A stretch of 62,339 nt of DNA, filler included, from Bonamia ostreae (GCA_040357525.1; 29 parts of 29 records of this genome joined end to end with filler, not necessarily neighbours in it), one strand, 5' to 3'. Shown: positions 28 through 58,994, counted from the first letter of the whole stretch. Numbers and translations are program-made. The notes: generated by a model not told the origin, from the sequence alone.

Positions 28-1390
28 CTAATAACAAAATTTAAAATCTAAACAATAAAATTTAAAATCTTCATTTTGCTTCATTTCGTTCTCAATCAAC
101 TCAATATCTTTAAGCGCTGAAAGTGTGCCAGGACTCAAAAAAGAATATTTTGGATTGTAAAAGAGATAAACAGATTTTATCTCTTTCGGCAAAATGTCAA
201 CTACATTAACATAAACAATCTCATTCTCGATTCTCAAAATCGCAAAATAACTTCCAAATTTCCCTTCACACTTTTCTGGAGCTTTACTTCCAACAATTGA
301 CTGATTTTTAATCGGAGAAGTGCACAGAAATTTTTCGAAACGGCTTTCATCGATTTCTTTTTTGTCTCGTTTGTGAATTTTTGTTTCATAGCATAAAAAG
401 ACCTCAAAAATGTCATCCGAATATTTTGCTGGCAAAAGCTCAAAACTAAATTTTTTTGAAAATTTCGAATAGTTTTTCTTTTTTGAAGCTTTAAAATTGT
501 TGCTTGCAGAAAAAGTTTTAAAATCTCGATTTTCTTTTAAAATTTGTAGCAGCAAAACGGACTGATTTTTTGTCTTCGAAGCGATTAAAAATTTTCCACT
601 TAAAATTTTGCACAATTTTTCCGAAAATTGCGCAAAATTTTGGTTAAATCTGTCAAACTTTTCCAGATATTTGTAGAGCTTAATGGGCAGATTTGTTATG
701 ATACAATTTGATTTTCTGCTGTGCACTTTTAGCTTTTTTATAAAAAATTTTGATCGTTAAAAAATTTGAAACATCCCAATTTTCGTCGCCAACAACAAAA
801 TCTTCAAAGCCCTCGTAGCAATTTAAGAATTCCAATTTGGCAACAACGAATTTTCGTATTTGCGGATAAATTCCGTTTTCTTTGGACAAAATCTGATTCA
901 GTTTCCTAAAATCAGTTTTTCGAATGTGACTGTTTTCGCTCGTTTTGGTCGGATTTGTGTACTTTCCGAACCGATTTAACACTTTTCTCTGCGATCTCGA
1001 AGCTTTAAAATCGCGCACGTCAAGTCGCATTGGATAAGCCGGGCAGCAGGAACTGGAGGGACAAACTAAATACAGTAAATTGCCGCTTCGAACAAAGCCG
1101 GCATCCGCGAATTTTTGGTAATCGGCCGGCGATAACGAGTCTGTGGTGACGTAGAACATTTTTTGTGTGGCGAACGGCCGTTTGCAATAACTGCAATTTG
1201 AAGCGATTAAACCGTTTATCGTTATAAACGGCTTCAAATGCTCTGATTTTAATAAATTCAACTTTTTGCTATCGAAAATATCTCTTGTTCTGGAAGATCG
1301 GGCACCAACGACAGCAAATTTTTGATTTGCTAAAATTCAAAATTGAACTTTTTGGTCGATTTGCTCTGCGCGGTTAATATTGTTGTTCAT
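28..1390 (-). CDS. ATE1: Arginyl-tRNA--protein transferase 1 (3' end probably truncated by the contig edge)
   Basis: N-domain CSYCK..YQKFADAGFVRSGNLLY..SCCPAYPMRL and C-domain VVDILPKEIKSVYLFYNPKYSFLSPGTLSALKDI. ATG at 1390; GT-AG introns at 1330-1348 (19 nt), 1243-1262 (20 nt) and 733-772 (40 nt) restore one frame. Confidence 0.92.
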
Positions 1391-1630
1391 TAAATATTTA
1401 ATGATTTCGAAAATAGGGTTGTCCATTCAAGCTCAAAAAAATAAATATTTAAGAAAGGCCGATTTTAGAAATGCTAAGTCCGAAAGAAAAATTATATGAA
1501 CCGTTTTTAGCTTTGTTGTGGCTATTTATTTCGTAAAAACTGTTTAGCTCTTTCGAGCTCATTTTGATATTAAATTAACAATTTGTAATAATCGATAAAA
1601 TCTCCATTTCCAATAATCCGCGAGCTTTAA

Positions 1631-2065
1631 ATGAGCAGAAAAAGTTTTGCTTTCGTTAATTCGAGATTACGACTACGAAGGCGAATTGCTAAGCGACAAA
1701 CAAGTCGAGCAACAAGAAGATTCGCCATTTTACAAAACGCTTTCTTTGGAAAAAATCGAAACCTTGTGGGACATTTTTTGGTTGTTTTTGATCATTTCAA
1801 AGCCAATCCGCGGAGAAATTTAAGGATTCGAAGTGTCTCGGAAAGAGACGACTGGACGATAATGGGACGCCGCAAGAATTTGTCTGGAAAACTTATCAGG
1901 AATGCTTCGAGTGTGTCAATGATTTGGCCAACGGGTTGCAGAAATTGTGCAACGATTTGGTTTTAGGGGACGTTGGTGGCGGCGTTAATTTGAGTGAAAA
2001 TGATCTTTCAAGAACAAACGATGAAAATAACCAAAAAATGGATGAAAACGAAAACGAAAAAATCG
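1631..2065 (+). CDS. Long-chain acyl-CoA synthetase, N-terminal part (3' partial)
   Basis: Removing 22-nt introns at 1644-1665 and 1781-1802 gives TLWDIFCQSAEKFKDSKCLGKRR..FVWKTYQECFECVNDLANGL, which matches the ACSL/LACS N-terminus. It is not visible as one ORF in the track. Confidence 0.8.
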
Positions 2066-2165
2066 NNNNNNNNNNNNNNNNNNNNNNNNNNNNNNNNNNN
2101 NNNNNNNNNTTAATTAATTAANNNNNNNNNNNNNNNNNNNNNNNNNNNNNNNNNNNNNNNNNNNN
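2066..2165. other. Artificial contig spacer N44-TTAATTAATTAA-N44 (first of 28 identical spacers)
   Basis: The same 100-nt spacer, with stops in all six frames, recurs about every 2.15 kb. Contig lengths fall monotonically from 2065 to 2035 nt. ORFs ending in X...LIN are artefacts of it. Confidence 0.99.
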
Positions 2166-3411
2166 CAAAAGATTTAAAAATTTTTATAAACATCTCAAAT
2201 TTTAAGCCAAAACTTATTTTAAGAATTGTTGCAACATTATAAATAATTTTAACTACTATTATTTTGTCAAAAATTACGATACGGCCAAGTAATATTTTTT
2301 AATAGCAAAATATTTTAATTCGAAAATTTTACCGAGACGCTTTCTATTAAATTTCTTACCAGTTTGTTTGGTGTTATAATCCAGCAATTTGTTTTTTACT
2401 TTTTACATTTTTAAAATTACACACAAACATCATTCATCCTTCCTAAAAATTATAGTTGAACTATTAATTTCCATTGACATTTATGCAAACATTTTTTAAT
2501 TGCATCCGTACTCTTAGATCAAACCACTCAGCATTGCGCCAAATTGGTAATATATAATCTTAAAGACTTCTAAAGTGTTTGAACTGTTTTAAATTTAAAA
2601 AATGACTTTTGATTCAATTTTTGATAAAAGTAATGAAATGATATACAACTTACTAAAAATTGATAGAAATAACTAACATTTTAATGGAGAAATACGGTTC
2701 ATTCTAATAGGTCATTCTAATAAGTCTCGAAGCCCTCACATAGGGCAAATGTATTAAAGACATTTCATTTAGAACATGGCTTTGACAATCATATAGCACT
2801 GAATTCATATACTAGATTTGAATTCATAAATTTAATATTTATTTCCAAATGTAATGTTGCAGTTGGAATTTTAAAGTTTACATGACGTGGACATTCAATG
2901 TGCCATCATTGTACTATTATTCACAAAGCATGAACGTTTGCCCCAATCGATGTACCTCAACAGAGAGGCGAAAATTAAAAACAATCATCAATTAACTAAT
3001 TTCGCTAATATTTTATTAATTTCGATTACACGAACCCACCTGACCGTCCATCTTCTAGCTCATAAATTTAAGGATCAAAACTTTTAGCTGCAACTTTTAT
3101 CAACATAATGTCTGATAAACCAGCTATTAATATTTGTGTGGAAAAGGCAATACCAGGCTTCGAATATGAGTACGGATTGGATAATAATATTATTCTGCAG
3201 AAAGATCCTTTTGTGTTGTACTGCATTAAATTCAAAACATTTTTTCAAAAATAGCTTTTGTATCCATTTTTTTTGTTAAATAATTATTTGAGAAGTCGAC
3301 GCCAAAAAGGATAAAAAACTTTCACCTAAAATTGCTAAAACAGCAGACATTTTGTATTCTAAGACATTTCCTTTGAAAAATAAAGAAAAAGAAAATATAT
3401 TTGGATATAAT

Positions 3412-57285: not shown

Positions 57286-57408
57286 TAAATTCTTTATTAC
57301 AGTAATTATTAAAATTTGTTTATATTATAAAATTAGACAACAACTTATTTCAATAACTATATGTGAACAGTTAACAAATCATTTTTTTCGCAATTAGCAA
57401 TATCGAAA

Positions 57409-58066
57409 ATGGGTAATTTAAAATTAAACAAATATAAGTGACTGTTGTACTAGCCGGAGATCAAAACAGAAAAAAAGGAAAACGATTTCTCTCGAAAAAT
57501 AACACAAAACAATTTTTCACGAAAAATGGGCTCAGGAACAAACCGATTAAGAAAATAAATCAATCCAAAAAATTTAGTTTCACTACAATAAGTTCCCAAA
57601 CACATAAAAAAATCGGAACTAGTAAAAATTTCAAGTATGGAAATGGAAAGTTTTTTTGTCAAAATTAAAGAAAGAACGTTCGAACAAATAAAACATTTAA
57701 GAAAACAACAAAAATTCCCTTTTTGAAAAACAAAAATTTTGACAAAAGTTTTTCCAAAAGCTACAAATTTAAATTTTAGACATTAGCTCGAACGACAAAG
57801 TCACATTACTGTTAAAGGGATTGCCTTATAATATCCGCACCAGCGAAATAATCACGGTGATTTTTGCAATTCTAACTTTTTAGAACAAACTTAAATTGTT
57901 AAACAAGATTATAAGCGTTAAAAAATTTTTGGTTTGACGAAGACACTTCGTTTTGAAGATTTTTGTATTTGGGTATCGGCCATTAAAATATTTGCAAAAT
58001 TTCTACTTAGCTATTTCTAATATATAGAAAATCTTTGCAGAAGATGACAAGATTCTCAACGTCGAT
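57409..58066 (+). CDS. Basic N-terminus plus RRM protein (3' partial)
   Basis: ATG G|26-nt intron 57413-57438; RNP2-like LLLKGLPYNIRTSEI followed by a 27-nt intron at 57857-57883. Confidence 0.5.
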
Positions 58067-58166
58067 NNNNNNNNNNNNNNNNNNNNNNNNNNNNNNNNNN
58101 NNNNNNNNNNTTAATTAATTAANNNNNNNNNNNNNNNNNNNNNNNNNNNNNNNNNNNNNNNNNNNN

Positions 58167-58994
58167 AAATGGTTCGTTCCTCCTCCGGGAAGGCTTCGGA
58201 TATATCCTTCGCTTTGCCGAAGACAGTCAAAGTTTTTGAGGTGGGCGTGCTATGGAACCTCGCAAAAGAGCCGTGAGACTTTTTCCTCACGGCCAATTTT
58301 TTCTTCTTCGTTTCTTCGCGCTCGACGAGAAATCTTAGCGAAAGGGCGTTGCGCTCCTCCGTTTTTTTGGCCTCCTTCAGGAGATGTTCCTGTGAGAACT
58401 TTTCTCTCGGTTTGTGTTGCCGCGGTCTCGTCTCCTTCCAATTTACGCTTGTTCAACCTTTTTAGAAAAGTCGGACACTTTTATGTTTTTGTAAGTTTCG
58501 GTTTGTTCCGCGGTGCTTTTCCGGAGGCGGTAAATTTTTTTGACGTTTTTTTTGTGTTTTTTCGATTTGCGAGTTTTTGTTTTTGGTTTAGATCTGGCCA
58601 GAAGGGGGTCTTTGTAGACGCCGTTTTTGTTTTTTCTGTCCTTCTTGCGTTCTTCTTGAAGGAGGATTTCGTCTGCGAGTTTGCCATCTTCTTCCGCCTC
58701 CTCCGATTTTGATACTTCGTGGCTAATGTCGGAGTCGCTGACGTCCGCCCCTTTGCGTTTTGAGAGGCAAACCTGGTCGTTCGTATTGATACTCGTCTTC
58801 GTTGTCCTTCGGGTTTTCTTTGAAGATTTCCATGTTCCAAAACTCCTCGTCGCCGGAAGACTCGTCTTCCTTCGTTCTTATGATTGCGTTGTGAATTGGT
58901 TTTCGAACCTTAATGTCCTCCTTCGCGAGCTCTTTGGTCTCATTGGGAGATTTTCCAGATCCGTTTCTGAGTCGTATTCTGAATAAGACGACAT
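58167..58994 (-). CDS. YL1/Vps72/Swc2-like H2A.Z chaperone, N-terminal part
   Basis: Introns at 58877-58908 and 58751-58772 give EEFWNMEIFKE..DEYQ..DVSDSDI..VYKDP..RKSTAEQT, similar to the YL1 N-domain. Confidence 0.55.

Follow-up and report, generated by a model that had tools for sequence, protein, structure and literature searches.

Segments of mostly 20–25 nt that interrupt genes of Bonamia ostreae, a haplosporidian (Haplosporida; Rhizaria, Ascetosporea) that parasitizes flat oysters, are, with a probability that we put at about 0.9, U2-type GT–AG spliceosomal introns of its nuclear protein-coding genes, removed from pre-mRNA. The material is a single window of 62,339 nt, filler included (29 parts of 29 records of GCA_040357525.1 joined end to end; G+C ~30%), in which an initial annotation had listed 19 segments as spliceosomal micro-introns that split genes into small reading frames, a claim now backed by RNA, by public protein models and by exact homology register. 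Eight introns are absent from RNA or public proteins and six are placed by register. These routes define a validated set of 13, formed by five of the listed segments (1243–1262, 49870–49889, 49973–49992, 33898–33919 and 29497–29517) and eight unlisted ones; the 19 listed segments and these eight make up a combined set of 27 introns (Table 1). Domains were sought with Pfam in 164 stop-to-stop frames of at least 75 codons across the whole window, and the inventory is one of ordinary eukaryotic nuclear genes: ATE1, PI-PLC, UbiA, short-chain dehydrogenase, RRM proteins, TGS1, SDF transporter, NFACT, glutaminyl cyclase, UBTD-like, EFL1-like pieces, DENN and YL1.

Removal from RNA is seen in the gene for arginyl-tRNA–protein transferase (ATE1). 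RNA was aligned to one N-free block, positions 1–2065 (~2 kb of the window), where a contig of 1796 letters from run X1 spans 54–1472; run X3 gave no contig aligned to this block. The X1 contig covers 773–1472 with a gap of 20 nt alone, which coincides with a listed ATE1 intron, and it also skips an unlisted 40-nt intron whose removal yields a single open frame from ATE_N to ATE_C. The boundaries of these RNA-supported introns are unambiguous, with no ambiguous letters. Exactly at position 54 the contig departs from the window, leaving a loose end of 255+ letters, and this point is a third GTT donor. Another listed segment of the gene, the 19-nt 1330–1348, stays in the RNA; because a methionine start (at 1426) ahead of the conserved CxxC motif of ATE_N requires its removal, and no ATG precedes that motif when it is kept, this segment is probably a poorly spliced intron.

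Public gene models already incorporate several of the micro-introns. A DENN frame of 373 residues matches a public B. ostreae protein of 467 residues (P0001) at 100% identity; P0001 maps to 49671–49868, 49892–49972 and 49993–51111. This identity rules out a ciliate, a nucleomorph or an animal as the source of the window; a dicyemid or other animal had been suggested by two immunoglobulin I-set matches and by an RNA run labelled 'mollusc metagenome'. An amino-acid transporter gene of the SDF family (32578–34036, + strand) matches three further public B. ostreae proteins, P0029 (463 aa), P0002 (423 aa) and P0028 (394 aa), and the public proteins skip six introns in all, two in P0001 and four among the transporter models. 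Removal of the listed 22-nt transporter intron restores a T..N(V/I).G motif that homologues conserve near their C-terminus (alignment, 12 of 26 homologues found), and its retention in P0002 truncates the last conserved helix. Three of the listed introns lie in the DENN and transporter genes, each of them spliced out in one or more public models, and the proteins map with the standard genetic code, no ciliate code being needed. The transporter isoforms differ only in the single micro-intron kept (25, 21 or 22 nt). Because of this single-intron retention, and because 1330–1348 is kept in RNA, splicing of some micro-introns appears to be incomplete, giving truncated or alternative products.

Further introns are placed by homology register. 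Starting from Pfam anchors, all frame-compatible, stop-free donor/acceptor pairs were enumerated with any dinucleotide at their ends, and those with GT..AG were then picked out. For the TGS1 cap methyltransferase, residues 31–53 of the human chain 3gdh_A align with the upstream piece up to one residue short of the donor, and the downstream piece restarts at residue 57, one residue past the acceptor; with one split codon between, the alignment to the human protein neither gains nor loses a residue. Register also places introns of 130 and 185 nt in the PI-PLC X domain, 57 nt in a UbiA prenyltransferase and 31 nt in a short-chain dehydrogenase, whose joined peptide would match the NNVG...Y motif of a human enzyme. 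A Pfam search with 10 short exon pieces returned the PLC-X match alone. Inside the 185-nt PLC intron lies a 57-nt unit repeated 2.6 times at 96% identity (4877–5027, − strand), which suggests that longer introns grow by tandem duplication.

Each of the 19 listed segments has the length first assigned to it and, on one strand, begins with GT and ends with AG. At every segment the strand agrees with that of the adjoining frames, both of these are open in compatible phase, and translation continued past the donor runs into a stop after 1–31 codons. Seventeen of the 19 start with GTT, against a background for T at +3 of 0.428 (5887 GT..AG segments of 15–40 nt; binomial p = 3.3e-5); at the same background, GTT in 13 of 13 validated introns and in the donor at 53 gives p = 7e-6. 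Across the combined set, GT..AG lies on the coding strand in 27 of 27, whichever strand the gene uses. When a dynamic programme was given a trinucleotide donor and free choice among intron lengths of 16–200 nt, it placed 12 introns of ≤32 nt among the 28 it used with GTT donors, against 0–4 (mean 2.1) with 14 decoy donors (GTA 1, GTC 1, GTG 0), an excess confined to GTT. The programme is crude: of the 13 validated introns it recovered 5, and of the 19 listed segments also 5.

The validated introns measure 20, 20, 20, 21, 21, 22, 23, 25, 31, 40, 57, 130 and 185 nt; eight of the 13 are 20–25 nt and the rest 31–185 nt, in a sample drawn from one 62-kb window and biased by its route of discovery. 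The initial annotation had described a population of 19–32 nt with a floor of 19 nt. Its short class stands; confinement to that range does not, introns of 40, 57, 130 and 185 nt occurring in the same genes, and the floor of 19 nt is unproven, the only RNA-covered 19-nt case being unspliced and the shortest proven intron being 20 nt, which is the firm minimum intron length here.

Signals within the introns are sparse. At the 5′ end, of 26 introns, 24 have T at +3, 18 have T at +4 and 21 have T or C at +5, a pattern other than the canonical GTRAGT that pairs with U1/U6 snRNA; at the 3′ end, AG is preceded by A or T. The 27-intron set shows no YTRAY/CTRAC consensus and no pyrimidine tract, in agreement with the earlier remark that a CTRAC-type branch motif is lacking, but A is enriched at one position, 8 nt from the 3′ junction, where 21 of the 27 have it (background 0.326 from 1327 other GTT..AG segments of 19–32 nt; p = 1.9e-6), among them 9 of the 13 validated introns. 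Intron GC is 0.22 versus 0.38 in flanking mapped exons.

These features would suit ordinary two-step splicing with minimal signals, namely a 5′ GUU(U) in place of the usual GUA/GUR, A+T richness, the −8 A and the terminal AG. We infer that the −8 adenosine is the probable branch point, picked by distance rather than by sequence motif; a 20-nt intron would then have ~11–12 nt from 5′ site to branch and 8 nt from branch to 3′ site, a spacing that would set the lower size limit. The U2AF small subunit is the factor that reads the 3′ AG, and the one encoded in the window presumably recognizes the terminal AG of these introns. Most introns would fall at 20–25 nt, with longer ones up to at least 185 nt, and some of them would be incompletely spliced. 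The U2AF small-subunit gene itself apparently carries two micro-introns, one starting with GTA and not GTT; a protein search with a piece of this gene gave no match, nor did a PDB search with the piece downstream. No Rfam family or tRNA was detected in the window, and no snRNA gene lies there.

Several points weigh against the spliceosomal reading or parts of it. A bare GT..AG at a frame junction is not above chance in any of three tests: frame-bridging pairs number 33.8 per 1000 for GT–AG, with the 255 other dinucleotide pairs averaging 27.5 and reaching at most 39.2 (no separation); a codon-usage dynamic programme, working with a coding signal of ~0.2 bit per codon, finds 30 GT–AG introns versus 28–52 for 13 decoy pairs (no separation); and 12 junctions hold 1–6 frame-compatible GT..AG pairs versus a chance expectation of 1.1–3.7 (near chance). 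T stands at +3 in 105 of 199 frame-bridging GT..AG pairs, versus the background of 0.428. Neither RNA nor public models nor exact register back 13 of the 19 listed segments, which rest on frame logic and domain continuity, and at several of these an alternative is equally frame-compatible, for example 16 nt at 15735 or 19 nt at 1784. Segment 1330–1348 is retained though two other introns are removed from the same contig. Run X1 was classed as RNA by a guess of the tool, and the evidence behind the public models may overlap with that run. The case for the −8 A as branch point draws on 27 sequences, of which 14 are unvalidated.

In one alternative, micro-introns are real and a sizeable share of the listed segments is mis-specified, through wrong boundaries or chance GT..AG at frame junctions or in untranslated regions, with the 19-nt class perhaps unspliced. 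We judge this possible, and clearly less probable than its opposite. It draws on the retention of 1330–1348, on junction counts that equal chance expectation, on the 13 segments just mentioned and on alternatives of equal frame quality at 15735 (16 nt), 1781 (19 nt), 39074, 53542, 57216 and 58751. It is opposed by the GTT start that 17 of the 19 share with every validated intron, by the five listed segments that passed a public-model, RNA-removal or register test (one tested segment failed), and by 39970–39988 and 35682–35700, each the sole GT..AG solution at its junction.

Frame breaks caused by assembly insertions and deletions, with transcripts that keep the segments, were the refuting case named by the initial annotation. 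The retained 1330–1348 would fit such an explanation locally, and nothing else was found for it; the RNA contig contradicts it in lacking exactly the GT..AG-bounded 20 and 40 nt, the public proteins skip six such segments, and sequencing errors would not produce the common GTT..AG ends, low GC and −8 A, leaving this explanation very improbable. Just as improbable is removal at the DNA level in the manner of ciliate internal eliminated sequences, which are TA-bounded and overlap in size with these segments: the guessed RNA status of run X1 would leave room for it, but the introns are neither TA-bounded nor strand-independent, GT..AG follows the coding strand of genes in either orientation and removal is therefore tied to transcription, the public isoforms include forms that keep and forms that lack a given segment, the window encodes a U2AF subunit, and nuclear dualism is not known in this rhizarian.

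Table 1. Introns and candidate introns of the window, with the U2AF small-subunit gene (listed, named in the initial annotation; DP, dynamic programme)
Position	Strand	Length (nt)	Listed	Gene or context	Observation
1–53	−		no	5′ part of a further ATE1 intron	Donor GTTTAG at 53 (..TTTATT/GTTTAG); remainder beyond the window
733–772	−	40	no	ATE1 intron	Skipped in RNA contig; ends CT..AC; 0 ambiguous letters
1243–1262	−	20	yes	ATE1 intron	Exactly these nucleotides missing from X1 RNA contig
1330–1348	−	19	yes	Candidate first ATE1 intron	Kept in the only covering RNA contig
1644–1665	+	22	yes	Candidate after a 13-nt first coding exon	Frame logic
1781–1802	+	22	yes	Candidate	GTT DP; frame-compatible 19-nt alternative 1784–1802
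4846–5030	−	185	no	Intron, end of PI-PLC X domain	Only GT..AG of 1428 frame-compatible pairs; surplus 0
5280–5409	−	130	no	Intron, PI-PLC X domain	Only GT..AG of 221 pairs; surplus 0 versus Pfam profile
9546–9602	−	57	no	Intron, UbiA prenyltransferase	One of two GT..AG candidates; surplus 1 residue versus Pfam
13937–13962	+		no	Candidate	DP
14652–14682	−	31	no	Intron, short-chain dehydrogenase	One of five GT..AG; surplus 2 versus adh_short; DP pick
15735–15753	−	19	yes	Candidate	Removal connects open frames of 192 and 78 codons; 16-nt alternative 15735–15750 fits equally
17149–17168	−	20	yes	Candidate	Frame logic; masked stretch ends upstream frame after 9 codons
24189–24209	−	21	yes	Intron inside RRM domain	Read-through stop within 6 codons; DP pick
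24429–24463	−		no	Candidate	DP
25459–25479	+	21	yes	Candidate, small Tim-like gene	GTA start; only GT..AG solution at junction
29497–29517	−	21	yes	Intron, TGS1 cap methyltransferase	Exact register versus human TGS1 chain 3gdh_A
29966–29996	−		no	Candidate	DP
32741–32765	+	25	no	Intron, transporter	Used in P0029 and P0002; P0028 starts downstream
32918–32938	+	21	no	In-frame, stop-free intron, transporter	Used in P0002 and P0028; 7 residues kept in P0029
33550–33572	+	23	no	Intron, transporter	Used in all three isoforms; only GT..AG of 86 pairs; length equals Pfam SDF prediction
33898–33919	+	22	yes	Intron, transporter	Used in P0028 and P0029; kept in P0002, early stop
35682–35700	+	19	yes	Candidate	Only GT..AG solution at junction; no Pfam homology on either side
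39074–39093	−	20	yes	Intron, glutaminyl cyclase	Three other GT..AG candidates
39970–39988	+	19	yes	Intron joining UBD and ubiquitin-like domains, UBTD-like gene	Only GT..AG of 2130 frame-compatible pairs
49870–49889	+	20	yes	Intron, DENN-domain gene	Skipped by P0001
49973–49992	+	20	yes	Intron, DENN-domain gene	Skipped by P0001
53124–53770	−			U2AF small-subunit gene	PDB 4yh8_A (U2AF 23 kDa subunit), E = 7.9e-16; Pfam RRM and zf-CCCH
53367–53387	−	21	yes	Candidate, Arg/Ser-rich tail of U2AF small subunit	Frame logic, DP; one 48-nt alternative
53542–53561	−	20	yes	Candidate after second zinc finger of U2AF small subunit	GTA start; read-through stop after 1 codon; three alternatives
54447–54472	−		no	Candidate	DP
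57216–57235	−	20	yes	Candidate before RING finger	Frame logic; four alternatives; weak RING match downstream
58435–58457	−		no	Candidate	DP
58751–58772	−	22	yes	Candidate, YL1-like gene	DP pick; four alternatives

Micro-introns had also been said to hide whole genes from the open-frame track, and of the names proposed, glutaminyl cyclase, UBTD and small Tim are upheld by Pfam or PDB matches, acyl-CoA ligase is unconfirmed and the PHD protein was not located. Homology of the cyclase to the solved structures 2faw and 3nol begins at residue 1 of the exon predicted after the 20-nt intron; the piece upstream gave no match in a PDB search. In the UBTD-like gene, the ubiquitin-like frame has no methionine ahead of its domain, and PDB searches with the pieces of this gene gave no useful match. 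The piece downstream of the small Tim candidate matches zf-Tim10_DDP at E = 0.0038 (below the Pfam cut-off), and that upstream of the listed RRM intron matches RRM_1 positions 1–41. Five unlisted GTT..AG candidates of 23–35 nt, returned by the dynamic programme, lie in or beside Pfam-supported genes.

The acyl-CoA-ligase-like label belongs to an N-terminal frame at 1631–2065 (+ strand), which is expressed (RNA contigs at 1817–2065); 1519–1794 is without RNA contig cover, and the candidates 1644–1665 and 1781–1802 lie outside the covered stretch. The label met a Pfam AMP-binding match at E = 0.22 and no match in PDB or protein searches, and no AMP-binding domain was detected by Pfam in the small frames of 1579–4227 (+ strand) or seen in a three-frame reading of 2166–3300. 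The frame runs into a masked stretch and then ~1 kb without an open frame (region 2166–4229), and may be a truncated gene, a gene with a long intron or a mislabelled one. Masking recurs throughout the window as paired 44-N runs with 12 bases between them, every ~2150 nt, which cut several genes; a single 10-N run lies at 22825–22834. EFL1-like pieces at 41510–45196 (− strand) carry domain 2, the EFL1 domain and EFG_IV by Pfam, with no GTPase domain visible upstream in any frame. Two frames (6895–7365 and 8077–8514, + strand) match the immunoglobulin I-set above the Pfam cut-off, at 27.4 and 34.1 bits; unexpected for a rhizarian protist, they could encode a parasite surface or adhesion protein or be host-derived.

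Introns start with GTR in most eukaryotes, from which the GTT of Bonamia departs. Tiny introns are also found in microsporidia, and ciliates, which belong to a different supergroup, resemble Bonamia in their dense, tiny GT–AG introns, with ~25 nt in Paramecium and a 5′ motif of GTA. Introns of the heterotrich ciliate Stentor are given as 15–16 nt (cited in PMC10245619 and PMC13644364). Mikrocytids (Mikrocytos mackini and Paramikrocytos canceri) are, like Bonamia, Ascetosporea and parasites of invertebrates with extremely short GT–AG-type introns (PMC10245619). Theirs are 16 nt in 217 of 224 cases and 17 nt in 7 of 224, few, highly conserved in sequence and served by a very reduced spliceosome, for which loss of U1 has been reported, and their splicing is incomplete, at 63% for 16-nt and 37% for 17-nt introns (PMC10245619), whereas those of Bonamia measure 19/20 to 185 nt, most often ~20–22, have an unconserved interior and occur in metabolic and transporter genes whose mikrocytid counterparts are intron-free (PMC10245619).

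Chlorarachniophyte nucleomorph introns (18–21 nt, cited in PMC10245619) are similar in size class and density, and their genome is likewise reduced and rich in A+T; they sit in a relic algal nucleus and vary little in size, whereas the Bonamia introns belong to the main nucleus of a heterotrophic parasite and have a long size tail. Myxobolids and Dicyema japonicum share with Bonamia reduced motifs, the lack of a polypyrimidine tract and short introns, of median 22–27 nt, and weakly conserved A residues just upstream of their AG have been proposed as the branch point (PMC13644364). These are animals with a 5′ GTa (PMC13644364), in contrast to the +3 T of Bonamia. Dicyemid introns have also been reported with a median of 27 nt (PMC6543705) and a mean of 38 bp (PMC6736024).

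The B. ostreae genome paper gives on average ~2 introns per mRNA and a GC content of 33%, and terms the introns 'canonical', contrasting them with the 'very short' ones of mikrocytids; no intron length or motif was found in the accessible part of its text, and the word 'intron' has no match in its four supplementary text files (PMC11069148). A literature search, with subscription journals mostly outside it, found no description of haplosporidian intron length or splice motif. Older papers on haplosporidian actin genes may refer to small introns. The GTT start and tiny size of Bonamia introns seem undescribed in print. The elements are of a known kind and part of them is already in public models; most notable are the GTT start and the A at fixed distance.

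Very short introns show the minimal sequence and distance that a spliceosome needs. Our results suggest that a second ascetosporean lineage, 'canonical' in print, has mostly 20–25-nt introns with a GTT start and a distance-fixed branch candidate, which would give a graded series within one parasite class, from paramyxids through haplosporidians to mikrocytids, in which to follow intron shrinkage and the co-evolution of splice sites. More tentatively, and at somewhat short of even odds, Bonamia and perhaps haplosporidians generally would carry dense introns at the physical limit of splicing (~20 nt), recognized by a 5′ site that has shifted to GUUU, with pyrimidines at +3 and +4, and by a branch A set purely by its 8-nt distance from the 3′ junction, with incomplete splicing, greatest at 19 nt, routinely giving truncated or alternative proteins. 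If true, recognition by U1/U6 would have co-evolved or been relaxed, and such introns would be a plausible intermediate toward the sequence-locked 16–17-nt introns of mikrocytids. For the annotation of this economically important oyster pathogen, gene finders run with a default minimum intron length break or miss genes, and the public models themselves disagree on which micro-introns are spliced out.

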